Below are positions 11,910 to 33,823 of a DNA stretch of 64,000 nucleotides, one piece after another. Each line of letters starts with the position of its first letter. The stretch's first letter is position 1. Below the pieces are notes generated by a model, which saw only the letters and a list, made by a program, of their open reading frames with translations, made no database searches and was not told the DNA's origin. Both the position numbers and the translations under genes were made by a program. Origin of the DNA: Hyphomicrobium sp. (GTDB lineage: Bacteria; Pseudomonadota; Alphaproteobacteria; Rhizobiales; Hyphomicrobiaceae); NCBI RefSeq assembly GCF_041659645.1, contig NZ_JBAZXX010000001.1, forward strand, positions 131,066-195,065. Reading direction: 5' to 3'.

Positions 11910-12095
11910 ATGCCCATTGACCAGACACGGATATTCGCAATCATCCGCGAAATCGAGCAGACACCGCACGACGAGTTGAAAGACATGGACCGCGAGCTTT
12001 TGCTGTCGATTAGACAAACGCTCCAAGAGCACAAAAGGGAAGTCGATAAAGTGCTGTTGCGTCTGGCGTTCGTGGACGAGCAGCAGTTGAACTAG
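11910..12095 (+). CDS. Small helical protein, unknown family (copy A)
   Basis: GGAG RBS; homologous to ORFs at 17734, 31885, 33426 and 33639. Confidence 0.75.
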   Translation: MPIDQTRIFAIIREIEQTPHDELKDMDRELLLSIRQTLQEHKREVDKVLLRLAFVDEQQLN

Positions 12096-12226
12096 AACGT
12101 TCCGCTTTTCGGCCGCCAGATAATCACGCCAATTGCAGCGACCACGATAATCCAGAGAACGGATTCTTTTCCACTTGGTTCGAGACCGCCATAGTCGGGG
12201 GATTTCTCGTAGCCGGATGACATGAG

Positions 12227-12571
12227 TCATTTGCTTTGCGATTTTCGATACGCATCGATCATCTCTTTCGTCACGTCCGCCGCCGAGCAGTAAACGGTCC
12301 AGCCTCCGGCCCTATCGTGTGCGCTGCGCTTACCGCATCTATGACCGGCTCTATCTGTATCGCTCGGGCACCCGCATGGCCCTGGACCGCCGGCTCGATA
12401 GGCAGCGATGGATGCCGCAATGATAGCTGTCACGATAGCCGCGTCAGTGAGAATTTCTTCGGTGCGATCTGAAGGATGTGCTGGTGGCGGCGCAAGGCTA
12501 TCCGCGTATGCGGGGAGGCATAACAGAATAGTACACGCGAGCCCGGCAACACTTGAAAATCGGAAGAACAC
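12227..12571 (-). CDS. Small secreted Cys-rich hypothetical protein
   Basis: Signal peptide; CGCP...RCGKRSA...YC pattern. Confidence 0.7.
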   Translation of the reverse strand: MFFRFSSVAGLACTILLCLPAYADSLAPPPAHPSDRTEEILTDAAIVTAIIAASIAAYRAGGPGPCGCPSDTDRAGHRCGKRSAHDRAGGWTVYCSAADVTKEMIDAYRKSQSK

Positions 12572-12666
12572 GCAACCCCCATCGTCCGAGCGAGCGTTCG
12601 CCTCATCTTCGGTATAAGGTTCAAGTTGCGCGAGAATTTGCGGCCTGTCTAGTCCTGCGTTCTCGC

Positions 12667-12810
12667 ACCATCCTTCGGCTGGAAGATTGGGCGACGTGGC
12701 TTCGAGAAGCGAACACTTCCGTGGCCGACGTGCAGGCGGTTCTTCGCACGTATTACGACGGCGGCAAGTGGACGGTGACTGATCGAACGCCCACGAGAAA
12801 GCCCGCGACC
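12667..12810 (+). pseudogene. SRAP C-terminal fragment
   Basis: ILRLEDWATWL...DVQAVLRTYYDGGKW matches the C-terminus of the 10787 copy. Confidence 0.8.
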
Positions 12811-13068
12811 TACCTCACAAAGGGGATACGGAGCCTGATTATTCGACCCGCCACCACGCCAGATACCCAGGATGCAATGCCGAAACAGACATATCAGGCG
12901 GGTTCGGCGCGTCAGCGTCGTCCAGATAGATTTTCCAGGTGCAGCTCCAATTGAAAGCCGCCCCAACTTATTCTCCCGGCCCGGTTTAAACGCGTCTCGC
13001 GCCCCGGCTCAACTCACAAACGATGTCAGAGCCTTGCCCGATGTCGCCGAGCCCCTAGATTTCCGGTC

Positions 13069-13728
13069 ATGTGCAACTTGTATTCGCAGACCCGGAATGT
13101 CGAAGCCATCCGGCGGCTGTTCAAGGTCAGCCACAACCGCACGATATCAATTGAACCGCAGCCCGCGATCTTCCCCGGCTGGAATGGCAGCGTTGTCCGT
13201 AAGGCCGAGGACGGCGAGCGTGAGCTTGTGACGATGTCATGGGGCTTCGTGCTGTTGCAGCCCGGCAAGGCCCCGCGCCGCGTCACCAACGTCAGGGACG
13301 ACAAGATTCTGACCTCGCGCTTCTGGAAGCCGAGCTTCGAGGCCCGGCGGTGTCTCGTGCCCGCGTCGAGCTATTGCGAGCCGGATAGCGGCAAGCCAGC
13401 CCAATGGCACTGGTTCGCCCTCGATGGCGACGATGACCGGCGGCTATTCGCGTTCCCGGGCATCTGGCAGCCCTGGAACGGTCCGGTGAAGAAAGATGGC
13501 CCTAACGTCGAGCTGGACGTCTACAGCTTCATGACGACGGTGCCGAACGCACTCACGGACTCGATCAATCACGAGCGGATGCCGGTGCTGTTATCTGAGG
13601 AAGCCGACTTCGAGACGTGGCTGTCAGGATCACCGGCTAATGCCTTCGCGCTCGCCAGGAGCTTTGACCCTGCGCAGATGCGGATAGTGCAAAGCGGCTT
13701 AGAAAAGAAAGACCTGTTGGCCGCCTGA
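13069..13728 (+). CDS. SRAP family protein (intact)
   Basis: MCNLY N-terminus (Cys2), WGF, SYCEP Glu and HERMP His. Confidence 0.95.
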   Translation: MCNLYSQTRNVEAIRRLFKVSHNRTISIEPQPAIFPGWNGSVVRKAEDGERELVTMSWGFVLLQPGKAPRRVTNVRDDKILTSRFWKPSFEARRCLVPASSYCEPDSGKPAQWHWFALDGDDDRRLFAFPGIWQPWNGPVKKDGPNVELDVYSFMTTVPNALTDSINHERMPVLLSEEADFETWLSGSPANAFALARSFDPAQMRIVQSGLEKKDLLAA

Positions 13729-13813
13729 TTTCTGGTCGGCGCGGCGACAGCCGCGAAAGTACGGTCATGCTGCGGTGCCGTAATGGGCCTTCGATGATCG
13801 CGGCGTGCCTTCG

Positions 13814-15043
13814 TCAGCGGTCACACGAATATGCTTGGGAGCAACGGACGTAGTCGCCCTTGATTGCAAAATTTGGAGTACTGAACTGCAGTGCGTTCGT
13901 GCCGATGGACTTTAACTGTACGTGCTGCTTCTCCGGCTCGTAGTCCTTAGTTCTACAAGCCATATCCAATTCCATCGGGGCACCGACTTTATCGACGGTT
14001 TCTGTCGTGCAACGGAAAGCCTCATAGAGCAAATCGACCTCATTCCCGCAAATTCCGATCATCTCCGATTGACGCCGCGTCACGTTATCCAAACCCTCGG
14101 CGGTCTCGATCTTACAAGCTTCCGCGGTATGCGCCCAAGTGCCGATCAAATTTGCAAAGGGCACGCTGTTTGCTGAATTGTCTTCCAGTCCGTCCTTTGA
14201 ATGGTCTTTGCCTGTTGCATCGAGCAACGTGAATTTTCGCGATACGAGAACGTTTCCGTTCACAACCAAATCCAACTGCCACTCGCCCAAATGATCCATT
14301 GTTTGCGGCCCGTTGAATTCGGAAAAAAGAATGCGCGTTCCAGAATCCGAGCGGCGGTAAATCCATGGCGACTTAATGTCTTCGTAGCCGGTGCCTCCTT
14401 CGGCCACTTCGAAAGGCCGCTCGGTCGCGTAATTGACGATGAGCGATTCATTGCGGCGAAGAGGCGGAATTAGAAGCTCATAGCCGACGATGAGCCCATC
14501 CTCTTTCACCACTTTGTCTACCGGCACCATCCGGTAATTCATGTGATAGCTGCGAACTTTCGCGTTCTCGGAGTCTTTGGTTTTTATTCCTTCGAAGTTT
14601 TTGCTCGTTGGCAAAAAACGCCCGAAATTTGTGACAACAAGATCAACGAGCCTGCCGCTTTCAGTTCGCACCGAAAATGTTCGAGGTAGCGTATCCGAGG
14701 GAACGTCGCTATCTACTCGTTCGATACCTTCGGATTCCTCAGGGCCAGCTTCATTGCAAGTCCATTCCGAAAGCAGGACATAGACGTCTTTTTGCGCTAT
14801 CCCGCCTCGGGTTCCGTGCAAATTGCCTTTGGCAAACGCCCCGGTGGCGGAGTTCACTTTCTGCGTCACATAAAAAGACCAGCCCGTTCCAATGTGGCTG
14901 TCGCCGGTCCATTGCGGATCGATTGCCATGGGGGATGGCGCGCTGAGTATTCTCGCGTTGCTGTCTTTCGGAAGGCAAAGAGAACCGGCAGAGCAAGTGC
15001 CATACGTCCCAATGAGCGCCAGGATAGTAAGAGCGGCTTTCAC
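13814..15043 (-). CDS. Secreted hypothetical protein
   Basis: Long ORF; signal peptide from GTG 15043 (VKAALTILALIGTYGTCSA); no family recognised. Confidence 0.65.
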   Translation of the reverse strand: MKAALTILALIGTYGTCSAGSLCLPKDSNARILSAPSPMAIDPQWTGDSHIGTGWSFYVTQKVNSATGAFAKGNLHGTRGGIAQKDVYVLLSEWTCNEAGPEESEGIERVDSDVPSDTLPRTFSVRTESGRLVDLVVTNFGRFLPTSKNFEGIKTKDSENAKVRSYHMNYRMVPVDKVVKEDGLIVGYELLIPPLRRNESLIVNYATERPFEVAEGGTGYEDIKSPWIYRRSDSGTRILFSEFNGPQTMDHLGEWQLDLVVNGNVLVSRKFTLLDATGKDHSKDGLEDNSANSVPFANLIGTWAHTAEACKIETAEGLDNVTRRQSEMIGICGNEVDLLYEAFRCTTETVDKVGAPMELDMACRTKDYEPEKQHVQLKSIGTNALQFSTPNFAIKGDYVRCSQAYSCDR

Positions 15044-15624
15044 GACACCCCCTATAATTCTCCATCTGAACTTGTCCAACTTTGCACAGACACGTTTCGC
15101 GCGTGCAATGGGGCGGATCATATGATTTGAAGAAAGATGAATTCTGATCGCTGTTCTTAAGCCAATCAGATCACCCGCACTGACACCTCAGCGTGCCACC
15201 TTCTAGACATGGCTGTTCGGCACACCGGCTGAGCAAGGTTCAGCAGTTTAGGCGGGGCAGTTGCTTATCATTGGCACGGCCGATGCGTTGACACACTATG
15301 GACCATCTGCGAAACGCCTTTCCCTTTAAGTATTCCAAGCGCCTAAACGTCGTTTTGGCGATGGTTGCGATGGTTCTGATCGCGCCGATTGCCGTGCTTC
15401 CTGTGCCGCTGTTTCGAGATCTATTTACCGAGCTTCTCAAAATCGTACGGTCTGGCGGAAACTTACCGTCCTAATCCGAAGGGGAGAGTGGTTGTCGCGC
15501 GATATTTTCGAACCTCAGTCGACGATTTCATCGCCGAGATTGCTAATCGCATTCGCGCGGCACTCTGACGGGAACGAGGTACGTAGATTCGACCTTGTTC
15601 GAAAGCTCTCTGACGACGTTACAC

Positions 15625-15698
15625 GCGCGGGCTTCGACTCCGCACGGATACGTATCGTGCAAAGCAGATTTGAGAAGAAAGATTTGCGGGCTACCTAA
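15625..15698 (+). pseudogene. SRAP extreme C-terminal remnant
   Basis: RAGFDSARIRIVQSRFEKKDLRAT* versus ARSFDPAQMRIVQSGLEKKDLLAA* of the 13069 gene; DNA is also similar. Confidence 0.65.
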
Positions 15699-15754
15699 GC
15701 TGTAGCGCACGCGATGATCTAACAGGAGCTATTTGCGCACTAGAACGATTGGGA

Positions 15755-16429
15755 TCAGAATTTATAACTGACACCAGCGCGCACACCTTGTTCGATGACA
15801 TCGGTGGGATAATTCCAGCCGCTATCCGTCTTCGGATTATCGGTGAAGCGGCCAAAGTCCGTGTAGCGATATTCCACGCGTGTCGTCCAGTGAGGCGACC
15901 AAGCGTATTCGACACCACCGCCCGCGGTCCAGCCAGCCTGAATGTTCGTCGAATTATCGTGGGTTGAACCTTCGTCGTAAGTCGATTGAATGTCGCCAAT
16001 CGCCAAACCGCCGGTGCCATAAATCAAGGCCCGTCCCATCGAGTAGCCGATGCGAGCCCGTAGAGATCCCTGGACGTTGATGTTGGTCTCGATGATACCA
16101 GCGAATTCAGAATCTATCTTGCCGCTAAAATTTGCGGCTTCGATGTCGCCTTCAAATCCTAAGATGATCGAGTTGAAAACATAATTGTAACCGGCATGCA
16201 CACCTCCGATTGCGCCATCGGGACCGGATGATCCTCGCCAATCAGAATTCCCACCAGATTTGCTAACGTCATGGCTGTGAACTTCGCCCCACGAATAACC
16301 GGCTTGCGCACCGACGTAAGCGCCCGCCCACGAAAATGGCGAACTAGCATCGTAGTCATCCGCAGAGCCCGCAAAAGCGGGAGTTCCTATGCACATGCCG
16401 ACTACTGCGATCCAGGTGCTGATTCTCAT
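15755..16429 (-). CDS. Outer-membrane protein, Omp25/RopB-like 8-stranded barrel
   Basis: WAGAYVGAQAGY, GWTAGGGVEY and RVEYRYTDFG motifs; terminal YKF. Confidence 0.9.
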   Translation of the reverse strand: MRISTWIAVVGMCIGTPAFAGSADDYDASSPFSWAGAYVGAQAGYSWGEVHSHDVSKSGGNSDWRGSSGPDGAIGGVHAGYNYVFNSIILGFEGDIEAANFSGKIDSEFAGIIETNINVQGSLRARIGYSMGRALIYGTGGLAIGDIQSTYDEGSTHDNSTNIQAGWTAGGGVEYAWSPHWTTRVEYRYTDFGRFTDNPKTDSGWNYPTDVIEQGVRAGVSYKF

Positions 16430-16524
16430 TGGACGACCTCTTTGATGGTGAGGGTGGATCCCACCATTCGTCATGGGCGTCTAGATCGATCCAGCAACAG
16501 TCCGCAGAATTAGCGGTATACGTC

Positions 16525-16710
16525 CTAAATTTCTACGATTTCGCGAAAGGGGACTGTCAGATCGAAACACAGATCTCTGAATGGATGGGCGAGTTTGTGC
16601 AACGCGTCACGATCAAGGGCAGTGGCGACGTTTTCTATGTCCTGGATCAGCCGGGCGCCGTGCTTTGCAGCACGCTTTCGAGGATTTGTTGATTTCCGAG
16701 GTTTCGCCAT
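16525..16710 (-). CDS. Small hypothetical protein
   Basis: Plausible ORF with basic N-terminus, divergent from 16919. Confidence 0.4.
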   Translation of the reverse strand: MAKPRKSTNPRKRAAKHGARLIQDIENVATALDRDALHKLAHPFRDLCFDLTVPFREIVEI

Positions 16711-16918
16711 CTCCGGCCCCTGCGGCGTAATTCGCGATGCAATGGCTGTATTTTATAGCTGAGTCTGTGAATGTCGATCTCCTGGTAAAATAGGAAATCT
16801 AGGCCCGAGGTCTTAAGTGTGAGCGCACTTGCTTCGGGAGCAAGGGGGCGGAAGTTGGGGTAATGACTAAAATCACTGTCGCCGAACTCCGTGCTATGAT
16901 TGGCGCAAAGCAGGAGGA

Positions 16919-17134
16919 ATGGACGTGCCACTAATCAGTCGACTGAAGGAGCGAAGGGAAAAGCTCCAAGCGCAGCTGGACCGATGGATCGCCCGAGGTT
17001 TCCGGGGAGGCGGCAAAGGCACATCGAACGATGCAACTTCGAAAGAAACAGCTGACAAGGTTTCGGAGATCGCTGATCTCAGCCGCACCATCGCCGAGCA
17101 GGAGACGAAGAAAAAAGATGTCGAAGGTCCTTAA
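16919..17134 (+). CDS. Small coiled-coil hypothetical protein
   Basis: Strong GGAGG RBS; charged helical composition. Confidence 0.6.
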   Translation: MDVPLISRLKERREKLQAQLDRWIARGFRGGGKGTSNDATSKETADKVSEIADLSRTIAEQETKKKDVEGP

Positions 17135-17167
17135 GGGTGAAAAGCCCCCCGCCGACGTCATCCACTT

Positions 17168-17428
17168 CGCCGACTGCTCTACGTCGCGATGACGAGGGCC
17201 AAGGACGACTTGCATCTGATCGTGCCGCAGCGCTTCTTTACGCACGGACAGTCTGCAAAAGGCGATCGACACGTTTATGCGTCGAGGACAAGGTCTATTC
17301 CAAACGCGTTGATCGACCACTTTGAAAGTGCCGCTTGGCCGATAGCAGCTGGTGGCAATTCCACAGCGAGGGCGGGAAGTTTTTCTCGGATCGATGTGGC
17401 GACCAAGATGAAACAGAGATGGGAGTAG
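17168..17428 (+). pseudogene. UvrD/Rep helicase C-terminal fragment
   Basis: In frame RRLLYVAMTRAKDDLHL (helicase motif VI); rest of the gene absent. Confidence 0.85.
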
Positions 17429-17733
17429 TGGAGATCATGATTGGCGAGAATGGTGATCGGATTGTCAGGGCCAATTGACGGATCTTCGCTCGATTCCATT
17501 CCGGATTTGATTAATTTTGGGCTGCGTCGAGATGCAAGCCAGCCACAATTATTGTCATATCATCCGTAGACGTATTGTCTGAATCTGATTCATGTTTTTT
17601 GTCGGTAAGCGAAGGCGTTCGCTCTCCCCGGCACCTTGATGGATGATAGAAACGTGACGCTTTTCCCGACCCAAAGGAAATCGCGTTGAAATTTTGATGA
17701 CATTGTTCCACTCAACAATATTGGTGAGCTCTC

Positions 17734-18042
17734 ATGTCAGAAAATCATTTCGCCACTTCGCACGCGCAATCTGATGATCTTGAATCGATGATGGAAGAAG
17801 CGCGACTGGTCGATTGTCTTTTGTCGGGCGATCAGACGTTACAGCCGGTATCGACTGCTCTAAGCTCTGACCCGGCGATCCTGCTCATATTGTGCCGTGC
17901 GCTCGAGAAAGAAGCCCAAAATAAACTTGATACGTTTAAACGCGAGCATCTGCTCACGATCCACAAATGCCTGGCGGGACTCAAGGAAGATATCGAACGC
18001 CGTCTGGTTGGTTGTTTCGAACCCTCGTTAGCATCGACCTAA
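17734..18042 (+). CDS. Small helical protein family member with N-terminal extension (copy E)
   Basis: LCRALE..L...REHLL.I...L..LK..IE..L matches copies A-D. Confidence 0.6.
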   Translation: MSENHFATSHAQSDDLESMMEEARLVDCLLSGDQTLQPVSTALSSDPAILLILCRALEKEAQNKLDTFKREHLLTIHKCLAGLKEDIERRLVGCFEPSLAST

Positions 18043-18269
18043 TGATGCCGCGCGGGAGCGGCGCGCGCAATCTGTGCTCCTAAAACTGGTCGGACTGGCA
18101 CCCGCTAGCCCTCAGGAGCTTCCTCTTTTCTGAAATAGCTGAAGCACTCTTACGAACGCGTGGGGCCAAATCATTCGTGACGAACGACCTCGTCAATACG
18201 TCCAATGGGTAGCTGACGGTACGACGGGCCTCGAGACGAACGTCAACAGCCGTTGCGAGCCGGAAGGCT

Positions 18270-18794
18270 CTACGGATTGGCGGAGGCTGCTGTCCAAGTT
18301 CGATAATCCGCGTCAGACACTTTCGGTATCGCCTTCACGAACGCGGCAAGGTGCCAAAGCTGATCGTCGGTGAGTCCGGCCTTCCCGAAGCTCGGCATGC
18401 CGGTCATCCGAATTCCGTTTTTGATGACCCAGAAGATTCCCGCAGCACTCCGCTCGTTGGCGACATCCTTCAGGTCGGGGGGATCGGGATTTAGGCCTTC
18501 GGAGAATTTCGACCATTTTACTCCTGGGCCGCCGTGACAGTGCACACAGCCGGCGTTTGCAAAGTCACGTGCCCCTTGCTGAATGACCGTCTGATCGTCG
18601 AGCGGGAAAGGGGCGTTGCCGCCTTCATCTTCGTGCCGCGCGATAGAGGCGTTACGCGTGCGAATGAGCGCCCATTTGACAGGAACCGGATCGCCCACTG
18701 CCGCGGCGACGTCGTAGAAACCGGCGAAAAAATATACTCCGGCAAACACTGCAAGGATAATTGCCAACGCGCCAACAGCAGCAAGGAGTCGCAT
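18270..18794 (-). CDS. Membrane-anchored monoheme cytochrome c
   Basis: CVHCH, IKNGIRMTGMP, N-terminal TM segment, GGAGG RBS. Confidence 0.9.
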   Translation of the reverse strand: MRLLAAVGALAIILAVFAGVYFFAGFYDVAAAVGDPVPVKWALIRTRNASIARHEDEGGNAPFPLDDQTVIQQGARDFANAGCVHCHGGPGVKWSKFSEGLNPDPPDLKDVANERSAAGIFWVIKNGIRMTGMPSFGKAGLTDDQLWHLAAFVKAIPKVSDADYRTWTAASANP

Positions 18795-18950
18795 GCTCGC
18801 CTCCGAGGTATCCGCTCACCATGCCCGGAAAGTACTCCCGAAGCTCAACCGCAGCAATGCTGTTGCAACCCTGGCCATACCTCGAACACGGCGGAGTCAA
18901 AAGCGCGCCCATGGTCGGTGCAATGATGCTCGCGTGTGTGAGCGAGTGCC

Positions 18951-19665
18951 ATGCGTATCGACTGGAACGAAGAAATCTGCGGCCTACCATTGTTGCGCGT
19001 GCGACATCTGCTTCGGCGCGCGGGTCCGGCTCAGTTCAACATTGGGTTTGTGATTGATGTTCTCGGGATCAAGCCCAAAAGCGCCGACGACCTGGTTGCC
19101 GAGCTCATGCGGCGAGGTTGGCTGGAGAAGGCCAAGCCAATAACGCCCCGCCGCCGCGGGAAGAAAAATAGATTATTTTGAAACAACGGTCGTAGGAAAC
19201 GCCTTTGCGATATCGAGAGCGGTTCGACGAATTTCCGGGCCGAAGGCGCAGTTAATTCTCAAAGGCTTCTTGGACAGGGTCAAAGCTGTGAACGCCGACG
19301 ACGACTTTGGCTGGTATGTCGTCGAGGTACGACTCTTCGGAAGCTATCTCGATCCATCCTTTTCTGACCTGGGTGATATCGATCTCGGAATCGAACTCGC
19401 TCGTCGCCCGATAATTGGACGTGATGTCATTGCTCACAACAAGGAGCGCGTGAAGCTATCCGGTCGAACCTCTCTGACCTTTTTCCAGGAGCTAGGCTTT
19501 GCGGAGCTTGAGGTGCGGCGGATTCTAAAGGCGAGAAGCCCCTATATCTCAACGCACAGGTTGGACGACATCGAAGACATCAAGGCCAAAAACCAGCAGC
19601 TATATCGGGCACCAAAGAAGGAAGCGAAGCCTAGAGAGCACCGGCAGCTTCGGTCGAGGACGTAG
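18951..19665 (+). pseudogene. Nucleotidyltransferase-domain (MNT-like) protein with N-terminal winged-helix-like region, frameshifted
   Basis: LFGSYL..GDIDLG motif; the downstream frame is open from 19144 and overlaps the upstream ORF that stops at 19181. Confidence 0.7.
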
Positions 19666-19703
19666 CTTTTCGCCACTCCGATAGGGCTGTTGGCGTGATC
19701 CGA

Positions 19704-20045
19704 TCAATTCGCAAATCGCATGGCGCGGATTTTAGCCCATGCCATCGCGTTCGCTTCGTACTCGGCCATGCCCTCGTCGATATAGAGTTTGCGGAGCTCT
19801 TGAAATAGTTTCTTCCGGGTTTGGACTTTCACGCGCTCATTGAGTCGCGCGGAATAGGGAACGATGAGGCCCATTGGTCGCTCGTCTGAGAGACGCACGC
19901 ACAGATGCCAACTGCTCTGAGAATACCAGATTCCGTCCCGGCGGATTCGAAATTGGTTCCGGATCAACCATCGGAATTGGCCCAGTCTGGGGGGACTGGT
20001 TGGTTGCGACGGTAAATGTTCTGACTGCGCTAGTAAGCTATTCAA
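19704..20045 (-). CDS. Hypothetical protein
   Basis: ORF only; C-terminal half looks helical. Confidence 0.3.
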   Translation of the reverse strand: MNSLLAQSEHLPSQPTSPPRLGQFRWLIRNQFRIRRDGIWYSQSSWHLCVRLSDERPMGLIVPYSARLNERVKVQTRKKLFQELRKLYIDEGMAEYEANAMAWAKIRAMRFAN

Positions 20046-20380
20046 TCATCATCACACATGAATACGGCGCGAAAAGTCAGAATCTTGCGGGATACCAGGC
20101 CGGCGTGTGCTCGGAACCAGCCGGGTTTTTGGCAACCTGGCGGCTCGATCGGCGCTTTTTGCCTGTAATGAATAACGTTATCCGCGCCCGGAAGTGGCCG
20201 GGCTGGCGGTCAGCTGTAGCGCGGTTTCGATCGTCGTGCGTTTTCGACGAGGCGCGTTCGGAAGAGGCCAAGTGAATTTGATCTGCGATCATCGGAAGCG
20301 TCGCGACATATTCCCATTGTCAAAGGGCCAGTATAGTGACCGCATCGTAAAAGCGCACAGCGCGACAGCGGAAAGAAGTT

Positions 20381-20989: not shown

Positions 20990-21125
20990 CTTCCCGTCTG
21001 TAGCAAGTTGGACACGTGAAAAGTTCTTCCTCTGCAGTCATGCTAGCGTCGTCCCGCTTTCACAGAAGTCCTACCAAAGTAGATTTTGGGGGCCATTCCC
21101 GTCGTGTTGCGTAAGAGGGTGTCTG

Positions 21126-24693: not shown

Positions 24694-25530
24694 TTAAGCC
24701 GTTTGTCCGAGTTTTACGTCGGCAAAGAATGAGACGGCGGAATGGCTAGCTTCTTTAGCGTCATACATCGCCATATCGGCGCTTTGCAGCAATTCAGTTG
24801 AAGTTGAACCATCAAGGGGGGCTGAAGCAACTCCGATGGCTACTCCAATGAAGTGGAGACGTGAATCTATTTCGATGCCGTCAGATAATGCTTGGACAAA
24901 GCGGAGCGCTACACTCTGCTCCTGCTTACGTGAGGGGAGGGAAGGAGCAAGAACTGCAAACTCATCTCCACCGAGCCGGGCAACCAAATCCTCAGACCGA
25001 GCGGCGGCTTTGAACCGAAGAGCGACGACCTTAAGCACTTCGTCACCACACGCATGACCGAACTGGTCATTGATTGCTTTGAATCCATTGAGATCGAGCA
25101 AGTAGACCGTCGGGTGTGCGCTTCGATCCAGAGACACTTGCAGACAGCGAAGGAATTCTCGCCGATTGGGTAATCCCGTCAGCGCATCCGCCATCGCGAG
25201 CGAGCGCTGCTCCTGCAATTCAGATTCCGCGAGCACCCGTTTCGTGCGATCCTGCCGTTCTTCAAGAAGGCGTCGCCAAATGAATATGGTCGCGCATAGC
25301 GCGAACAGTAAGCCAAGCGCAAACAGTTCTTCGCTGCATATCGTACGCTCGCGAGGGGTAATATCGCTCCATAGCTCTTCCAGATCGTAGGCTAGGGCAA
25401 GTGTGACCCCGATCGCCATAGTGGTGATCGTCAGCGATAAATCAAATGCGCTCGTGAGAGGATGACGCTTTATCGTCTGAACGAAAGTAGCGAATTTTAC
25501 CACGGGAAACCTCAGGAAATAGCTCGGCAT
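24694..25530 (-). CDS. Membrane diguanylate cyclase
   Basis: Two TM segments, DLNGFKAINDQFGH, RSED I-site five residues before GGDEF. Confidence 0.92.
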   Translation of the reverse strand: MPSYFLRFPVVKFATFVQTIKRHPLTSAFDLSLTITTMAIGVTLALAYDLEELWSDITPRERTICSEELFALGLLFALCATIFIWRRLLEERQDRTKRVLAESELQEQRSLAMADALTGLPNRREFLRCLQVSLDRSAHPTVYLLDLNGFKAINDQFGHACGDEVLKVVALRFKAAARSEDLVARLGGDEFAVLAPSLPSRKQEQSVALRFVQALSDGIEIDSRLHFIGVAIGVASAPLDGSTSTELLQSADMAMYDAKEASHSAVSFFADVKLGQTA

Positions 25531-25743
25531 GGTAGTAAGGGATGGTTGAGATCTCCGTAAAAGCGATTGTCAAATTGTAGTATCCGCTGCGGATGTCTCC
25601 GTGGAACCGCCGCGCCGGATCTTGCCCCGATTCCATTGGAAACCACGTCGGATCTATGGGTGATGGCCGCCCCGGATCGCTCAAAAACAAACTTGTGCCG
25701 CATATACAAGTCATTACTCCCCAAAAATCATGGAGCATTGGTT

Positions 25744-26274
25744 TTGAAGCACCGTATCCACGTATGCGGCCTGCGTAACGTCTCGAAAACTTCTGAAGCG
25801 ATTGGCGCCGGTCATCTGGTGAGCGCTATCGAAGCCCACTCATTCCCAAAAACGCCTCGGAACATCCTGCGCGGCCGCCATCTCAGACTTGATATGGACG
25901 ACATCGCACAAGCGCAGCCCGACATGGTGCTGCCGTCGGAGAGGCATGTTCTCGACCTGCTGGACTTCGTCCAAAGCTGGGATCAGAAGTCTCCGTTGCT
26001 CGTTCACTGCTTCGCCGGAATGAGCCGCTCCACGGCCTGCGCCTATATCGCAATATGTGCGCTCAACCCCCAGGCCGACGAAGAACGGATTGGGCAATCG
26101 ATGCGCAGATTGTCAGCGACGGCCACTCCCAACCGCAGGCTTGTAGCGCTTGCAGATGATATCCTCGGACGCGACGGGCGAATGATCGCCGCGGTTAGCG
26201 ACATGCACGCGTGCTTCAACGATGTGGCTACGCCTTTCAGTGTGGGCCCGAGCGACTTCCTGGAAACCGCTTAA
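25744..26274 (+). CDS. Protein-tyrosine phosphatase-like protein
   Basis: HCFAGMSRS (CX5R); GGAG RBS 8 nt before TTG 25744. Confidence 0.88.
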   Translation: MKHRIHVCGLRNVSKTSEAIGAGHLVSAIEAHSFPKTPRNILRGRHLRLDMDDIAQAQPDMVLPSERHVLDLLDFVQSWDQKSPLLVHCFAGMSRSTACAYIAICALNPQADEERIGQSMRRLSATATPNRRLVALADDILGRDGRMIAAVSDMHACFNDVATPFSVGPSDFLETA

Positions 26275-26608
26275 CTGAGCCGCTGGCTCGACCGCGAACG
26301 TTCTAGTCGGCATAGTCATTGTGTCTAACGAGAGCTGGTGTGTCGGGGGGCAGTCGGGACCAAGGAATCCGGCGCACGTAACACAACATGGGGCGCTCGC
26401 CCTGGACGTTTGCCTTATCTCGGCAACGGATGCACGCGTTCCTTCGATCTAATGATAAGAGGTTGCGACAAAGCGGACTTGGTTCCCGGTGGTTCCGTTC
26501 GCGGACTATAGTACTGTCTTCCACGCCTCGACTTTTGGGCCGCAGGGTGTGCAACTACACGGTGCCCAGGGGCTCGGGATGGAGACGGCGCCATTTCGTC
26601 GTTTTTGC

Positions 26609-26633
26609 GGAACTCTCTGAGACGGGCGGCGTT
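26609..26633 (+). promoter_or_regulatory. sigma-EcfG-type promoter (GGAAC-N16-CGTT)
   Basis: Exact motif 27 nt upstream of ATG 26661. Confidence 0.75.
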
Positions 26634-26660
26634 AGTGGGCTTTCAAACAATGGGCTTTCG

Positions 26661-27506
26661 ATGGAAATCAACGTAGGTTGTACGCTGCGCTATCAGATGG
26701 CATCGGCGACCGGATTCGTGTTTCAGATAGAGGCCGCGAAGGCGGACAGCCAGTTCGTCAAGAGCGAGCTGCTTACTATCCCGGCAGGTCCAGATCCTTC
26801 GGGGTATACGTCGTTCGTGGATGCCATCACATCAACACGTAAGGTGCGTGCGATGCTCGGACCTGGCGTGGCCGAGATCAACTATCGCGCCACCGTCGAT
26901 GTCGACACCACGGGATTCGATCCCAACAGCGTCTATGAATTTGATTTCGTGAACCTGCCGATGGACTCTCTCGAATACGTCGCGCCGAGCCGATATTGCC
27001 CATCGGATACTTTTACGCAGTTTGCGAATGAGGTGTTTGGCGGCATCCAGCGTGGGCACGTTCGGATACAGGCCATCAGCGATTGGGTATATTCTCACAT
27101 AGGCTATCAGAGTGGCGCTACGGGGCCGTCCTCTACCGCGGTGGATGTGTTTCATAGCGGCCAAGGGGTGTGTCGTGATTTCGCTCACCTCGGTATTTCT
27201 TTATGCCGGGCGCTCGGTATCCCGGCGCGTTATGCAAGCGTTTATGCCGACGGACTCGTGCCGCAGGACTTCCATGCGGTCTTCCAAGCCTATCTCAATG
27301 GGCCGACGGGCGGCAGATGGTTTACGTTCGATCCGACGCGCATGAGTTCATCGGATTTCGTTGTTCGAATCGCTGCCGGCAGGGATGCGGCCGACGTGGC
27401 CTTCGCGTGGCCGCAGGGCGAAGTTGCGTTTGAGGCGCCACAGGTGTTCGTCGAGGCTATGGGCCGTCAGGATCGGACGCGCAGCTCACTCGCCATCGGA
27501 AATTAG
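26661..27506 (+). CDS. Transglutaminase-like protein
   Basis: GVCRDFAHL, DFHA and FDPT triad motifs. Confidence 0.92.
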   Translation: MEINVGCTLRYQMASATGFVFQIEAAKADSQFVKSELLTIPAGPDPSGYTSFVDAITSTRKVRAMLGPGVAEINYRATVDVDTTGFDPNSVYEFDFVNLPMDSLEYVAPSRYCPSDTFTQFANEVFGGIQRGHVRIQAISDWVYSHIGYQSGATGPSSTAVDVFHSGQGVCRDFAHLGISLCRALGIPARYASVYADGLVPQDFHAVFQAYLNGPTGGRWFTFDPTRMSSSDFVVRIAAGRDAADVAFAWPQGEVAFEAPQVFVEAMGRQDRTRSSLAIGN

Positions 27507-27624
27507 CGGCGGCATTTCGTTGATGCTATGCGGGAAAGAACTCGCGTTCGATTGACGATAAACATTCATTACTTTTGAGCATATTTGCCGACGGGAGCGC
27601 GAGAAAACCGCCCCTAAGAGGCTC

Positions 27625-27651
27625 GGCCTCCGGCATTTTCGCTCGGAGGCC
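27625..27651. terminator. Hairpin between convergent genes (possible bidirectional terminator)
   Basis: GGCCTCCG-N11-CGGAGGCC. Confidence 0.45.
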
Positions 27652-27744
27652 TAGCTGCAAATTGATAGGTGCTGAAATACCGATCGCCGTGCGCGCCGAA
27701 CCTTGTCCCAGACTTAGCCGACGCTTTTCGAAGCGGAAACGCGC

Positions 27745-27885
27745 TTAGTCCAATGACGGCTTCGGATCGTCGATCGGAATCGGAGGGGGCTGCGGTGGGT
27801 CTTTGGGTTCGGGAGGTAACGGCGGGAGCTGTCCCGGTTCCTGTGTGGGATGGGGAATCGTCGGTGGATCGTCCTCATTGCCCAT
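27745..27885 (-). CDS. Small proline-rich peptide
   Basis: MGNEDDPPTIPHPTQEPGQLPPLPPEPKDPPQPPP; directly downstream of 27897. Confidence 0.45.
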   Translation of the reverse strand: MGNEDDPPTIPHPTQEPGQLPPLPPEPKDPPQPPPIPIDDPKPSLD

Positions 27886-27896
27886 CTGGAAATCTT

Positions 27897-28175
27897 TCAT
27901 GCACGACGCCAGAGAATGATGGTCACGAAGGCTCCCGCGATGGCGGCGACGTAAAGAAGTAACGTCGGTAAGAGTTCGAGAATGACGCCGATATGGAAAC
28001 CCATGAAGGAGCCGGCGATGCCGACCAAGGCAAACGTGATATCGCCAGCGCCGGTTGCTCCGGCAATTTGACGACCGAGCCAGCTTCGGCCCGCGCGGTT
28101 GAGGAAAAGGCCGACGATAATCCCGATCAGTACGAGGAGGATGAATGTGACGATGGCAGTCGTAAGAATGGGCAT
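27897..28175 (-). CDS. GlsB/YeaQ/YmgE-like stress membrane protein
   Basis: Three hydrophobic segments, GIAGSFMG motif; upstream near-consensus EcfG motif. Confidence 0.75.
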   Translation of the reverse strand: MPILTTAIVTFILLVLIGIIVGLFLNRAGRSWLGRQIAGATGAGDITFALVGIAGSFMGFHIGVILELLPTLLLYVAAIAGAFVTIILWRRA

Positions 28176-28211
28176 GGTGCGATCCTTTTGAGTATCTCTC
28201 CGGCCGAATAC

Positions 28212-28237
28212 AACGCTGCGGAGCCAACGATGGTTCG
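28212..28237 (-). promoter_or_regulatory. Near-consensus sigma-EcfG promoter (CGAAC-N17-CGTT)
   Basis: One mismatch; 36 nt upstream of the 28175 start. Confidence 0.55.
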
Positions 28238-28340
28238 GTGGGCTGGGATTTTCTTCGGGCGAGAGCCGTCAGCGCGAGGTTAGACGGAGCGTCGGCGGGT
28301 TCGATTGCTCGGCAAAATTCAGCTGGGTCGAGTGGGTGCA

Positions 28341-28366
28341 GGAACATCCGCGCCAGTTCCGGCGTT
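28341..28366 (+). promoter_or_regulatory. sigma-EcfG-type promoter (GGAAC-N17-CGTT)
   Basis: Exact motif 30 nt upstream of ATG 28397. Confidence 0.75.
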
Positions 28367-28396
28367 TCCGGACGCAACACAGCGAGGAGCACGACA

Positions 28397-28525
28397 ATGG
28401 ACGGAAAATCATTCCTTATCGGGGCGCTGATCGTAGCGCTTCTGGCCGGGGGCTACTTTTACTACGACAGCACGCGTTCGCAGGTGAAGATCAATGCCGA
28501 TGGGGTGAAGGTGCAGGCCGAGTAG
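28397..28525 (+). CDS. 42-aa single-pass membrane protein
   Basis: GAGGAG RBS; MDGKSFLIGALIVALLAGGYFYY; EcfG promoter. Confidence 0.75.
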   Translation: MDGKSFLIGALIVALLAGGYFYYDSTRSQVKINADGVKVQAE

Positions 28526-29019
28526 CGAGTGTGCCGACCATCGGCTTGTCGACGACGGGAGATACAATCTTTCGATAAGGGTGCGCGAGGGGGAGCTGGA
28601 TGGGGTCTGCTCGGCAATGACGAATGCCAGGTGATCGCAAGAACGGCTTCCCCGCGCTCGAATTAGTGCCACTCGTTTGAAGCGTTGGCTTTCGCCTGGC
28701 GGTTGGAATATGAGCGTGGGGATGCCATTATGGGAGATGAGTTCTTCATAGACGAGACGGTCTTCCGGGGGAATATTTTGTGCTTGAACGCATTCTATTT
28801 GTAGCAGACGGGGCGGGCTTTGTCTTACAAGCGCGATATTGCGTCCCGAAATCGGTTCTTCGTCGTACTGCGATACCATCGATTTCCCGGCCGTTGGTTT
28901 CCCATCATCGGCGCCGATCCAACGTCGCCTGATTGCAATTGCGGGCGGGCAATATTCATTGGGCCGACGTCGGGCGATGAGGTCGGTCTCCAATTGCTCA
29001 GAACATCACATGAGACGAC

Positions 29020-30108
29020 ATGCACATCCTTTGCTTTATGCCCCGCAACATGAGATTTGGTCCGTCGAATGCGACGTCGATCGATCTTTGTGTGCATGAC
29101 CTCATCCTCGCGAGCCGCTATCGTGAGGAGACAAGGATCCTCTGCTGCGAAAACGAGACGTTGTTTCCAGGCTTGCACATATCGACGTATCCGCCCTCGA
29201 TAGACCGCCGTAAGGCAAAAAAAATAAAGTTCGCGTTGGCGCAAGCGCGGTCGAATTCAGCCGACGTGATCGTCGTGCAGCAACATCTTCCAACGGCTGC
29301 AGGCGTGGCGCGACGAAGCCCGATGCCGGTCATCCTGCATAAACACAACATGACGAAGCCGATACCGCCCACGGGATTTTTCAATCGCGTAAGGCGTAGC
29401 TGGCGTATTCGTCAGCATAATGCATTGGCGGGGATCATGTTCGTGAGCGAAGCCTGCCGAGACGAATTTCGCGCCGATTGGCCTGAAATTTCGACGCCGA
29501 TGGCCGTCGTCTACAACGGGTTGGACTTCGATCAGTGGCAACCCGCGGAACATCCCCGAAACGAGATTATTTGCGTCGGGCGAGCGGCGCCAGAGAAGGG
29601 CATCAAAGACGCGGCAGAGGCTATCGTTCGTGTCCTTGCAGCCGAGCCTCTGTGGTCGGCACGGTTCATATTGAGCGAATCCCAGCGGTTTCCGGACTAT
29701 TTGCAGAGTGTCATCGAGACGCTGAAGCCGGTTGCGGATCGAACGACCGTGGAACTCAACCAAACTTTGCCTGTTGTGAGACAACGGCTGCAAGAAGCGG
29801 CAATCGCGATCGTACCTTCCAGATGGGAGGAGCCCTTCGGCCGGACCGCTCTTGAGGCTCACGCGGCCGGGTGTGCGGTCATCAGTTCCGGCACCGGCGG
29901 GTTGCGGGAAGTCAGCGGCGACTACGCGCTGTTCCTGCCGAAGGATTTCACCGCGAAGGACATTGCCGATCGGCTGGAGCAACTTGTAAGCGATGAGGCA
30001 AAGAGAACTCGCTTGGCGAGTGAGGGCCGCGACTATTGCCTACAGAAGTTCGCTTTGAAGGCAGTTTCTGAAAGTGCGGACCGATTTTATCAACGAATAA
30101 AAGCCTAA
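29020..30108 (+). CDS. Glycosyltransferase family 4
   Basis: GRAAPEKG and EEPFGRTALEA (EX7E) motifs. Confidence 0.92.
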   Translation: MHILCFMPRNMRFGPSNATSIDLCVHDLILASRYREETRILCCENETLFPGLHISTYPPSIDRRKAKKIKFALAQARSNSADVIVVQQHLPTAAGVARRSPMPVILHKHNMTKPIPPTGFFNRVRRSWRIRQHNALAGIMFVSEACRDEFRADWPEISTPMAVVYNGLDFDQWQPAEHPRNEIICVGRAAPEKGIKDAAEAIVRVLAAEPLWSARFILSESQRFPDYLQSVIETLKPVADRTTVELNQTLPVVRQRLQEAAIAIVPSRWEEPFGRTALEAHAAGCAVISSGTGGLREVSGDYALFLPKDFTAKDIADRLEQLVSDEAKRTRLASEGRDYCLQKFALKAVSESADRFYQRIKA

Positions 30109-30743
30109 TACGAATGTCCGAGGGCCTTGCGTTTCAATTTTGGCGGAGATTGCAGGCTCTCGAAGCCGTTCCCTTGCCCCGGGAGTGTCCTCAAAGCTAC
30201 ATTTCTTGGGCTTCATCGAAGTAGTGCCCGGGAAACCAAACTCTTCAAGCAAGCGAGCTGTCGTCGTGACGCACCGGGCGGCCCCGGTACGAGGACGACT
30301 ATGCCTAGTCATTTTGATCGATTTGCACTGGAGGTTTCTGCCGCTACCAGTCGCTAAAAAAGGCATTAGCATCGTCGCGTCGTGATAGCCATCAAGCGAC
30401 AGATCTTGGCGCCACTGAAGTGCATCGCCTGTCGATACGTGCCGCTGGAAAATCGGGAAAAAAATCGCCAAGAGCAGGTGCTGCTCGTAACGTCATGGGA
30501 ACCGAAACATTCGAGGATCGCGAAAGGTTGGCCGTGGAATAAAGTGAGGAATTCAAAATCTGCGCGCGCGAAGCGAGGTCACGGACCAGGTATTATCGGA
30601 TAATTAATTGCGTGTCGGGTGGGAACAGTTGGTCTAAAAAAAATTTTCATCGCCCGTGGTTCGAGGGGCTCTCGCACGGCACTCTCATAGATTATACAAC
30701 GTAAATTCACGAGCGCGGATCGGTCAATAAGGCATGAGCTTCT

Positions 30744-31181
30744 ATGGTTGGGGGAATGTTGAACTATCACGCTGCCGAAGCGATCATAAGTTCAATGCAC
30801 TTAGCGTGGAGCGACAGTGATCTCTCAAGTCTTCTAGAGAATTTTGCAGACGACATTGTTTATAGGCCCAATTTACGGGATGCGTTTGGGCACACCAGAA
30901 TCTACCGCGGTCGGCGGGAACTCGAACGCCTTTTCCGGTACAAATCTGAAATGCTGACGTCGACAACGACGGTCGAGCAGTTCGCTTACGCGTCGGGGAT
31001 AGCGCGCACCAAGATAGCGTTCATCCAGGGCCATCATCGGACCGGCCTGACTTACGTCGGCACCTATCGGCAAATCGTGATGTTCCGGGGGCTGAAGATC
31101 GCGTTGCTTGAAGAGCTTCACGACGCCGAAAAGCTTCGCGCGTTCTGGAATTTGGTAACGGCTGAGGAAGGCGAACGGTGA
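30744..31181 (+). CDS. SnoaL/NTF2-like protein
   Basis: AW...DL..LL..FADDIVY and GTYRQ..F...KI..L.E.HDA pattern; paralog at 33842. Confidence 0.8.
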   Translation: MVGGMLNYHAAEAIISSMHLAWSDSDLSSLLENFADDIVYRPNLRDAFGHTRIYRGRRELERLFRYKSEMLTSTTTVEQFAYASGIARTKIAFIQGHHRTGLTYVGTYRQIVMFRGLKIALLEELHDAEKLRAFWNLVTAEEGER

Positions 31182-31335
31182 TGTTGGGGGGCAATCGTCC
31201 AGGGGTAACGCTCGCACTCAAAGAACTCGAGCGAACTGTACGATCGCACAGCGACGTGGTTGCATATTGAGCGGCGCTCGAGGGCATCGCCGGGTCGAAT
31301 TACGTTCAGACTTAGTTATCGGCACACAGCGAGAC

Positions 31336-31697
31336 TTAATCTCTAGCCAGACGAGTAGCTATGACGCTGTTCACGACGATCGACACATCATCAGGATTGA
31401 ACGGCTTGGCTAGGATCGGCGTATGCGGATAAAGCGCGCTTATTTGGTCCGCACCAGCGCCGTTGCAGAATGCGAACGGGATACCCTTTTTTTTTGAGTG
31501 TGCGTGCAATCGTTTGAGCGTCGCTATCCTCAAGAACGTAATCCATTAGAGCGACGTCGATCTTTTGGTGATCCAGGACGTCGAGTGCTTTCGGCCGCAG
31601 AAATATCAAGTGACTGCTCCGCGGCTTCGGCCAGTGCGTTGTTCAATGCACGCGAGCGCAAAATTCTATCGTCAAAGCTGTAGCCATCGATTCGCAT
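31336..31697 (-). pseudogene. Single-domain response regulator, frameshifted
   Basis: IDVALMD, GIPFAF and LAKPF motifs in different frames; frame change at an A9 run (31487-31495); degenerate 5' end. Confidence 0.75.
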
Positions 31698-31884
31698 AAA
31701 AATTTCTCAAATGCTCAAAAAAAGACAGTTGAAGAAGATATGCCGTATGCGTCATATTTACTGAAGATTGCTATGCTAATGCGACGAACGACATGTGACA
31801 GAGATTGATATTCCAAAAGCGATTTGAGCTTAGCACGGAAGTTAGAGCTTGCCGACGTGAATGGGTTTCGTAATCGGGTGCATA

Positions 31885-32064
31885 ATGCCAACGACGAATA
31901 GCATCACTCTGCTCAATATCTGCCGGGCAATTGAACAAACACCAGATGAAGGGCTTATGGCGATCGAGCGTGACGCCCTGGTCGCGACACGAAAAGCCTT
32001 GCGAGCCCTCAGGCAAGAAGTGGATCGAGCATTGTTGCGATTGGCAATTTTGGACGAGCAATGA
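31885..32064 (+). CDS. Small helical protein family (copy C)
   Basis: ICRAIEQTP..L...ERDAL...L..LRQEVDRALLRLA; homologous to copy A. Confidence 0.7.
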   Translation: MPTTNSITLLNICRAIEQTPDEGLMAIERDALVATRKALRALRQEVDRALLRLAILDEQ

Positions 32065-32374
32065 CCGAGTCATCGACTTGCGTCCCGCGCCTGCTCATTA
32101 CGGTTTATCGCCATATCTTGCACGGTATTTTTTAGCTGCGGTTTGGAGGGATGGTCTTGCCCTGCGTGAAGGATTTAGGGCACCCCCGCGAGGGCACGTG
32201 GAGTAATGTCTTGGCAATGAGGGAATTGACTGGTCTTGCCGCGCAGGAGATAGGTAGATCTCAAAAGTGCAGTTGAAACCGCACTCCTACAAATTCGCAC
32301 CGAGGAATGATGGTCGACTGAGACATCGCGTAACGTCGCGACTGCTGGCCACTGGTCTCATTTCGCGCTCGCGT

Positions 32375-32863
32375 CTTTGGCAGGCAGGGTGGTGGTAATC
32401 CCGTTCAGCCAAACCACATGCACGTTCGGTCTGAAACAATCGACCGACGACCGACGTTCGACAATGCCTTCGCTCACGGTCGCGTCATTCTCGTCGTCCA
32501 CACGTTCAACGAAGGCGAAGAGTTGCCGAACGGCAAGACGAAGCAATGGGTCATCACGACGGACAGCCGATTGCGATAGACGTGATTTGCGAGGAGTAGC
32601 CGAACGGCCCTGATACACTGGACACGTTCATTCAGGTGACGACGCCAGCCAACGCCCTGATTTCGAAAATTACCGACAGAATGCCGGCCACACTTCAGTC
32701 GGACGATTGGGCGACCTGGCTTGGCGAGGAGCAAGGTTCACTGGCTGACGTAAAGGCGGTGTTTCAGACATTCGAGGATGGCGGTAACTGGACGATGGAG
32801 GAGCAGCCGCGCACGCGAAATGCCAACGCGAAGAAGTATGAAGGGCAACCGGGACTTTTCTAA
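32375..32863 (+). pseudogene. SRAP pseudogene (5'-truncated, frameshift, TAG at 32597)
   Basis: Colinear DNA similarity to 10950-11455, ending QPGLF*. Confidence 0.88.
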
Positions 32864-32942
32864 CACACGATCAATCGGAAACCCAAGGGCACCGCACTGG
32901 CAAAGGAGAGCGATGCCCACTACATTTGAAATGTTGACGAAC

Positions 32943-33260
32943 TCAGATTGCGAAATCTTCCAATTTCGCACCCTTCTTCAACCGAATAACGAGCCACGTC
33001 GGCTTACGACCGCGACCAGTCCATGTCGACGACTTGTCTTCAGGGTTTGCGTATTTCGCAATTCCGACAGGCTTCTTGGCACCTTTCGAAGAGCCAAACA
33101 ATTCCGCCAATGAAAAGCCGGATGTTGCCGCCAAAGCGGCGAGCTTCTTTTTAATTTCAGAACGTTCACGGGACCGCGCTTCGATAATAGCGAATTGAAG
33201 TTTGCCCTCCAGGCTAACAAGTTCCTTGAGGCTCAAACTTTTGACGTTGATGGCGGCCAT
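32943..33260 (-). CDS. hns: H-NS family nucleoid-associated protein
   Basis: KYANP and TWTGRGRKPTW DNA-binding motif; GGAG RBS. Confidence 0.93.
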   Translation of the reverse strand: MAAINVKSLSLKELVSLEGKLQFAIIEARSRERSEIKKKLAALAATSGFSLAELFGSSKGAKKPVGIAKYANPEDKSSTWTGRGRKPTWLVIRLKKGAKLEDFAI

Positions 33261-33425
33261 TCATAGCTCCAATTGATATTCGAATTGCAAGGGGAGGCAC
33301 ACAAACACTGAAATTAATTACGATGTCAACAACCGCACTTGGCAATTTTATATTTGTTGCAGTGCGGCGATATTTTGCCCGATATGTCGATGTAGTTATG
33401 TAGGCGATCGATATTGAGAGTACGA

Positions 33426-33608
33426 ATGACCGCTAAAGCCTCCCTATTCAAAGACTTCTGTCGAGCGTTGGATGACGCGCATGGCGACGTCTTGGCGACT
33501 TCCGACAGGGAATGTCTGCTCTCCCTACACAGAGCATTAACGGGACTAAAAGGCGCCGTTGAAACTGCTCTTCTGCAAATCGGTTCGGATGATCGCCTGG
33601 CTAACTAG
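33426..33608 (+). CDS. Small helical protein family (copy D)
   Basis: FCRALD...L...DRECLLSL...L..LK..VE.AL. Confidence 0.7.
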   Translation: MTAKASLFKDFCRALDDAHGDVLATSDRECLLSLHRALTGLKGAVETALLQIGSDDRLAN

Positions 33609-33638
33609 CGTCGAGAGATTGTTCGAAGAGCATCACTC

Positions 33639-33823
33639 ATGCCGTTAGACCCAACACGCATTATTTCCATTATCCGCGAACTTGAACAGACTTCGCCGGA
33701 AGCGTTGCAGAAAATGGACCGCGAGCTTTTGCTGTCGATTAGACAGACGCTTCGAGAGCACCAGCGGGAAGTCGAAATATGCTTTTGCGACGGGCGTTCG
33801 TGGACGAGCAGCAATTGAATTAG
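33639..33823 (+). pseudogene. Small helical protein family (copy B), 1-nt deletion
   Basis: Close to copy A (shared ATGGACCGCGAGCTTTTGCTGTCGATTAGACA); one base missing near 33777 relative to A. Confidence 0.8.

Follow-up and report, generated by a model that had tools for sequence, protein, structure and literature searches.

The 64-kb window of the Hyphomicrobium sp. genome analysed here (the whole stretch of DNA; the genome as such is called G000) carries five copies, four of them intact and one frameshifted, of a family of small helical proteins which we call X, and with a copy on another contig the genome total is six. X is an orphan small-protein family that is novel in sequence and fold, is restricted to one genus among the genera sampled and has unusually clean gene-pair partners. 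That it is a real protein family is virtually certain, and its genes are very probably linked in a non-random manner to those for a 362-residue LuxR-type regulator (LuxR-362), for H-NS, for SRAP and for two small proteins named Y and Z. The best explanation overall, to which we would give a little less than an even chance, is that X is a lineage-specific acidic helical family serving as partner of regulators, found here in a decaying accessory region.

The five plus-strand open reading frames (ORFs) reported in a preliminary description of this DNA were all present and could be aligned without large gaps, the residues R13, L23, R28, L31 and L38 (numbering of copy A) being invariant. Scoring with the hidden Markov model (HMM) of the family gave E values from 3e-22 to 8e-34, far beyond chance, and the ORFs are thus paralogs. 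Copy A (11910-12095, +; E 8e-34) is intact and codes for 61 residues with the end ...FVDEQQLN; it represents the 'island type' of clade II described below. Copy E (17734-18042, +; E 2.5e-25) has 102 residues, of which residues ~44-102, the C-terminal ~59, form the family domain; the conserved N-terminal extension of ~40 residues is common to a homolog of 100 residues (P0054). Copy C (31885-32064, +; E 1.8e-25) has 59 residues, belongs to clade II, stops two residues before the usual ...LN end of the family and lies ~200 bp upstream of an SRAP pseudogene. Copy D (33426-33608, +; E 3e-25), of clade I, is intact with 60 residues and is divergent from an H-NS gene, with a spacer of 165 bp. Copy B (33639-33818/33823, +; E 3e-22) is an A-like pseudogene in which a 1-nt deletion near 33776 has caused a frameshift; the ancestral end, NMLLRRAFVDEQQLN and stop, is still readable as far as 33823 if the other frame is taken. 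Since copy B has lost only this one base and the old C-terminus is legible, it is either a recent pseudogene or the product of a sequencing error. The sixth copy, F, is intact (G000:C3:458995-459174, minus strand). The earlier statement that A and B are close in DNA and the other copies distant also held: A and B share 77-89% of their nucleotides, an identity confined to the coding sequence, whereas the protein identity of C, D and E to A is 20-41%.

The X ORFs are real genes, coding in the plus frame and under purifying selection. Seven A-type orthologs from independent assemblies each have exactly 61 codons with identical start and stop, the orthologs of copy A being 70-93% identical. Among the seven, the numbers of variable columns at codon positions 1, 2 and 3 are 28, 13 and 46, and the pairwise ratio of nonsynonymous to synonymous substitution rates (dN/dS) is 0.04-0.33, mostly ~0.1, with 0.07-0.18 for copy A against six orthologs. 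The purifying selection on which the preliminary description had made its proposal depend is therefore present. The synonymous sites vary freely along the entire gene and so hide no nucleotide element; a nucleotide-level element embedded in the X gene was rejected for this reason.

When 1.84 billion representative proteins were searched exhaustively with the HMM, only 68 clusters were obtained. Within Hyphomicrobium the family was found in 19 of 64 species, usually as a single copy; this genome and G236 with six copies each and G204 with four have the expanded sets. X was absent from the sampled genomes of 50 other genera of the family and 307 other genera of the class, and the suggestion of a lineage-specific protein is borne out by these counts (0 of ~350 other alphaproteobacterial genera sampled). 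There were no matches in collections of 72,556 plasmids and 50,697 phages, for which reason an origin from a plasmid or phage was rejected. A search for related loci with a narrow alignment gave 3 loci. The named X records come from metagenome-assembled genomes of Hyphomicrobium sp. or of unclassified Proteobacteria and are labelled 'hypothetical protein' throughout, except for two Joint Genome Institute (JGI) records whose labels, BMFP/YqiC and IS5 transposase, are evidently spurious.

The members are nearly always stand-alone proteins of ~60 residues, and a fusion to another domain was never seen. X is acidic and cytoplasmic: the isoelectric point is below 6 in 23 of 29 members (range 4.2-9.3), and neither a signal peptide nor a transmembrane segment was found in any of these 29. 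Three stretches are conserved, namely hCxAhEE in helix 1, L-x3-DRE-x-LL at the opening of the long helix and LxxLKxEVE within it, and the C-terminal ...LN is very frequent. An AlphaFold2 model from 34 family sequences (predicted local distance difference test, pLDDT, 85) has helices at 5-17, 20-24 and 28-60, so that one short, one single-turn and one long helix bearing the DRExLL motif are predicted; with ten sequences the model had the appearance of a two-helix hairpin.

No relatives of X were found in Pfam, NCBIfam, PHROG and PADLOC scans or in PDB sequence searches. Foldseek gave no PDB match at E<=10 with the model of pLDDT 85, and nothing significant in the PDB (two models) or in BFVD. 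The preliminary description had spoken of a helical protein of no recognised family and had asked whether its HMM would hit a characterised one; none was matched, and the predicted fold is helical as proposed. Membership in known families of small regulators was rejected case by case. In the Pfam-A scan, which covered all five copies with E values up to 10, no copy matched Hha/YmoA (PF05321); the TraM antiactivator family (PF09228) was rejected by the lack of both a Pfam match and a PDB fold match, and the QseM type (PDB 7UQT) by the lack of a match to a PDB sequence or fold. The profile of X compared with that of the adjacent H-NS gave an hhalign probability of 0.2%, which argues against its being an H-NS N-terminal oligomerisation domain or H-NST. 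The BMFP/YqiC label of the one JGI record was matched by neither Pfam nor NCBIfam.

About 25 independent X loci were compared by all-against-all clustering of their ORFs, and the X genes were placed on a tree. Two clades resulted, clade I with the F, D and E types and a group that has an AraC-like regulator as neighbour, and clade II with the A and C types, the members of which share the ...FVDEQQLN end. The F type is located ~170-430 bp downstream of the gene for LuxR-362, a regulator of the LuxR/CsgD family, on the same strand. The sources call LuxR-362 a helix-turn-helix or CsgD-family regulator, and its distant homologs carry PF00196; its N-terminal part of ~290 residues had no Pfam match, that to an autoinducer-binding domain included. 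Orthologs of LuxR-362 occur in 8 of the 64 Hyphomicrobium genomes, and an X gene is next to every one of them; in metagenomes, 14 further pairs of contigs of matching length link the two genes. In this genome the obligate pair is at G000:C3:458995-460519 (locus L035, 9993-11520). This LuxR-linked clade is chromosomal and is the most stable X clade. LuxR-362 was missed in the preliminary description and is among the tightest partners of X. An AraC-like regulator stands beside X in 3 loci, and the corresponding clade I group, which has a carboxylesterase as neighbour too, consists of L033, L046, L047 and L034.

Two further genes were observed around the F-type loci. A gene for a conserved secreted protein of ~120 residues (motif DPCAAPxAYVxxRIxRIKAL) lies ~1.4-1.5 kb upstream of the F-type X gene, preceding LuxR-362, in 5 of 5 loci examined (L030, L035, L038, L039 and L045). 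The window itself has a gene for an NYN-domain (LabA-like) protein with an N-terminal extension of ~120 residues (34360-35274, -), and NYN orthologs of 183 residues are found 1-8 kb from F-type X in L030, L035 and L038, which makes them a loose third recurrent neighbour.

The second type of neighbour is an accessory paralog of H-NS. All 19 X-carrying genomes that were checked have a core H-NS gene, and ~7 have accessory copies as well; in these 19 genomes X was never found beside the core gene. Five loci, by comparison, have X no more than 1 kb from an accessory H-NS gene, as the earlier proposal of an H-NS neighbourhood would have it: the window, L037, L040, L041 and L042, which come from G000, G204, G236 (twice) and, for L037, a metagenome contig. 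The accessory paralog of the window (32943-33260, -) encodes 105 residues (PF00816, E 1e-15). The divergent pair of H-NS and D-type X with a spacer of ~160 bp occurs in the window and in L042 (G236); the two spacers gave no meaningful alignment, and a conserved intergenic operator was rejected. The C type stands beside an accessory H-NS (convergent, ~400 bp) and SRAP. On the metagenome contig (L037, 5133-8063; ERZ25039554:contig_42001) the order is SRAP pseudogene, X, a hydrophobic ORF of 39 residues, H-NS on the minus strand, a broken X and an intact X. This is the layout of the window at 31.9-33.8 kb, so that this genome is not alone in having X paralogs clustered around an island H-NS.

The neighbours listed for the window in the preliminary description (both SRAP loci, H-NS and two SnoaL-like genes) were all confirmed, with unequal weight elsewhere. 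Accessory SRAP genes of two subtypes are present, subtype 1 at 10787-11455 (+; PF02586, E 1e-29), 455 bp upstream of copy A, and subtype 2 at 13069-13728 (+; PF02586, E 1e-30), divergent from Y. The SRAP pseudogene (~32267-32863, +) between C and H-NS has an internal stop and broken frames; over 32397-32855 it shares 76-81% of its DNA sequence with the gene at 10787-11455. Subtype 2 is the one found elsewhere beside the cassette of Y, X and Z, and its homologs occur near X in L011, L013, L018/L049 and L037. The genome has one core SRAP gene and ~6 accessory copies or remnants. An accessory SRAP gene, or a fragment of one, is found no more than 3 kb from X at two places of the window and in L011, L018/L049, L037, L040 and L044; in L013 the distance is 5.5 kb, and in L048 a doubtful SRAP fragment overlaps X. 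SRAP near X thus recurs in ~7 independent loci, in line with the neighbourhood proposed for it, and most of the SRAP copies there are truncated or frameshifted. In the first three relatives examined, the core SRAP is the sole copy and is far from X. The idea that X travels as a module with its neighbours consequently stands as far as SRAP and H-NS recur with it, but is too strong, as SRAP is missing from most copies in related genomes. As to the SnoaL-like gene (30744-31181, +; weak SnoaL_2 match) with its frameshifted paralog at 33830-34324, and the receiver-domain genes, neither was seen in any of the ~25 other X loci, and both have to be given up as recurrent partners. C-terminal SRAP fragments of the same subtype were also observed at 12553-12954 and 15492-15698, 1-2 kb downstream of each intact accessory SRAP gene, perhaps left behind when the SRAP 3' end was replaced or received insertions.

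The window represents accessory DNA that is old and in decay. It lies downstream of a tRNA-Ser gene, its G+C content is below that of its left edge, and it has many pseudogenes and fragments of insertion sequences; no tyrosine integrase was found in it. The wider contexts of the X loci contain integrases, serine recombinases and transposases. The presence of five copies in the window can be attributed to blocks of SRAP-X and X-H-NS-X which accumulated in the decaying region and are now eroding.

The A clade has neighbours of its own, which were missed in the preliminary description and are also among the tightest partners of X. Y (12227-12571, -) is a protein of 114 residues with a signal peptide, a hydrophobic helix and the motif PCxCPxDx4Gx2CGxRSA; it had no significant Pfam or PDB match, and a sub-threshold hint of TrbC/VirB2 (E 0.04) was not used. 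Z (12092-12223, -) is a peptide of 43 residues, MSSGYEKSPDYGG... with one transmembrane helix, and its gene converges with copy A. Y, of ~120 residues across the loci, is beside X in 7 of 7 A-clade loci, and a homolog of Z (42-55 residues, MPSGYEQSPDYGG... and then a transmembrane helix) overlaps X tail to tail in the same way in all 7, the stop codons of X and Z sharing the palindrome CTAG. The seven include L044, a member only ~50% identical. Usually Y precedes X on the same strand and Z converges on X. In the window, Y and Z are instead coupled on the minus strand (12571 to 12092), the stop of Y being 3 nt before the start of Z, with X converging. As Y and X elsewhere run together with a convergent Z, the X/Z unit of the window is inverted relative to Y.

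Since X members adjoin genes for DNA-binding proteins, namely a LuxR-type regulator, an extra H-NS and SRAP, with the AraC-like regulator likewise among their most faithful neighbours, they are probably small partner proteins. That the partners are the neighbouring DNA-binding regulators, a mechanism read from gene order and composition, is possible, though we hold it with some doubt. Adjacency and phyletic co-occurrence, the two features looked for in a regulator partner, were found with LuxR-362 in 8 of 8 genomes and with accessory H-NS, within 1 kb, in 5 loci. In such a mechanism X would bind the regulator encoded beside it and modulate its activity. The partner would be the LuxR/CsgD-type activator in the chromosomal F clade, the island-borne H-NS paralog for the C and D types and the AraC-like regulator in another clade, and the effect might resemble that of an antiactivator or a co-silencer, as exerted by TraM/QseM on activators and by Hha on H-NS. 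In the A clade, X may work with the small membrane proteins Y and Z, both of which appear from the positive-inside rule to have cytoplasmic parts and which could tether or release X. A wider version, in which X is a new, genus-specific small acidic adaptor for both H-NS paralogs and LuxR-/AraC-type activators, is rather unlikely as judged at present. The same holds for its two corollaries, that X would be a functional counterpart of Hha and TraM/QseM on an unrelated fold, and that mobile islands with expanded X paralogs and SRAP would tune their own silencing and activation.

Several points weigh against a role of X as regulator partner. X is not similar to any of Hha, TraM, QseM and the N-terminus of H-NS, and two accessory H-NS loci (L050 and L051) are without X. 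As none of SRAP, Y and Z is a transcription factor, it is a stretch to assume one mechanism for every clade. The neighbouring loci may share ancestry, and the counts given above are therefore not fully independent events. Finally, a regulated target would be expected next to a regulator gene just as much as a partner would. X could then be a small effector or stress protein controlled by the adjacent LuxR- or AraC-type regulator or by H-NS, with a role unrelated to them. The spacer of 170-430 bp downstream of LuxR-362, on the same strand, leaves room for a regulated promoter of its own, and the divergent H-NS and D genes share a control region of 165 bp. However, one product of 60 residues would hardly be the target of three unrelated regulator classes, in addition to standing with SRAP, Y and Z, and a co-occurrence as strict as that with LuxR-362, in 8 of 8 genomes, would rather be expected of a functional pair. 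We regard the regulated target as unlikely, although it is the strongest competitor of the partner role.

The ancestral role of X could also lie in the Y-X-Z cassette, X being the cytoplasmic part of a small membrane-associated complex on mobile islands, for example in surface exclusion, immunity or the relay of envelope signals, and the other paralogs being derived or decaying. The constant company of Y and Z in the seven A-clade loci, the conserved overlap of the X and Z stops and the position of these loci amid integrases, serine recombinases and transposases are consistent with such an origin. On the other hand, clade I and the C and D types are without Y and Z and are nevertheless intact and conserved, and the most stable clade is the one linked to LuxR. 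This origin is thus less likely still than a regulated target. An anti-defence or DNA-mimic-like protein that neutralises host H-NS, restriction or repair factors on entry of an island would likewise be acidic, small, multi-copy, island-borne and placed beside SRAP and H-NS paralogs, as X is. It is improbable nonetheless, as the plasmid and phage collections contained no X, no anti-defence-like fold was matched and the LuxR-linked clade is chromosomal and stable.

An antitoxin had been suggested for X in the preliminary description, and in a toxin-antitoxin pair the Z membrane peptide might be the toxin, being small, hydrophobic and convergent and overlapping with X in a way that recalls type I systems. 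This suggestion found no support. Most X copies have neither Z nor a toxin-like neighbour; no toxin family was present among the neighbours, no toxin-antitoxin, PADLOC or other defence model was matched, and the predicted fold has neither a ribbon-helix-helix nor a helix-turn-helix, on which grounds a type II antitoxin was rejected. X is furthermore conserved as a protein and not as an antisense RNA, and a toxin-antitoxin role is accordingly very improbable.

The weakest alternative, that the ORFs are not genes but chance open frames or the shadow of an antisense ORF, is already refuted: an antisense ORF of 112 residues spans A, and several orthologous loci have an open one as well, but its length varies from 57 to 161 residues while start and stop of the X gene are fixed in all orthologs, and the codon-position pattern and dN/dS given above favour the plus frame. 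Variation is highest at codon position 1 of the antisense frame, which is therefore a noncoding shadow frame and was rejected as a true gene. Such long antisense ORFs run across copies A (11892-12230, -) and B (33605-33859, -) and several orthologs, and they could mislead gene callers.

Upstream regions were searched for the EcfG motif of the general stress response (GGAAC-N15-18-CGTT). The only nearby site, GGAACTGAACGTCTCTTTGCTCCGTT at 11841-11866 on the minus strand, is upstream of and faces a gene for a secreted protein of 85 residues (11513-11770, -), away from A, and an EcfG promoter of A was rejected; the counts of the motif in the window were not above those in shuffles. A shared upstream word, ATTTCAAC, was weak, being found in 4 of 17 X upstream regions. 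Just upstream of copy E, an ORF at 17189-17428 (+) resembles the C-terminal end of a UvrD-type helicase (...DDLHLIVPQRFF...) and is probably a gene remnant.

If X does act as a regulator partner, co-regulators of H-NS and LuxR-type proteins that are Hha-like or antiactivator-like would be described for the first time from this lineage of methylotrophs and denitrifiers. They would be built on a fold without known relative and would offer a handle on the silencing and activation of its genomic islands. The pair of LuxR-362 and X is a clean two-gene unit and amenable to testing. Even without a function X merits a Pfam-type database model, given that its records, the two spurious JGI labels aside, say only 'hypothetical protein'. 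The reach of the finding is limited to one genus, and orphan families of small proteins of this kind are common.

Three known systems invite comparison. Hha, YmoA and Cnu are co-regulators of H-NS in Enterobacteriaceae and are also carried on plasmids together with an H-NS paralog, for example on R27. X is like them a helical protein of ~60-70 residues encoded beside a horizontally acquired H-NS paralog; it differs in having no match to the HHA model, another helix count and another bacterial class, and in being found also far from any H-NS. The H-NST proteins are likewise small, coiled-coil, borne on genomic islands and act on H-NS, whereas the X profile is unrelated to the N-terminal domain of the adjacent H-NS (hhalign 0.2%). 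TraM and QseM are antiactivators of LuxR-type and DUF2285 regulators on Agrobacterium Ti plasmids and Mesorhizobium ICEMlSym, that is, on alphaproteobacterial mobile DNA, with the gene beside that of the activator they bind (PMC10359603). X resembles them in being small, all-helical and stand-alone, and its F-clade members form strict pairs with a LuxR/CsgD-family gene; the neighbours of X included no DUF2285 gene. QseM has 83 residues and four helices (PDB 7UQT; PMC10359603) in a fold that mimics DUF2285 and binds FseA or TraR, whereas X has three predicted helices and is without sequence or fold similarity to TraM/QseM. With lineage-specific hypothetical small proteins X has in common the 'hypothetical protein' naming of its records, but compared with the usual orphan its gene-pair partners are unusually clear, and a copy number of six is unusual.

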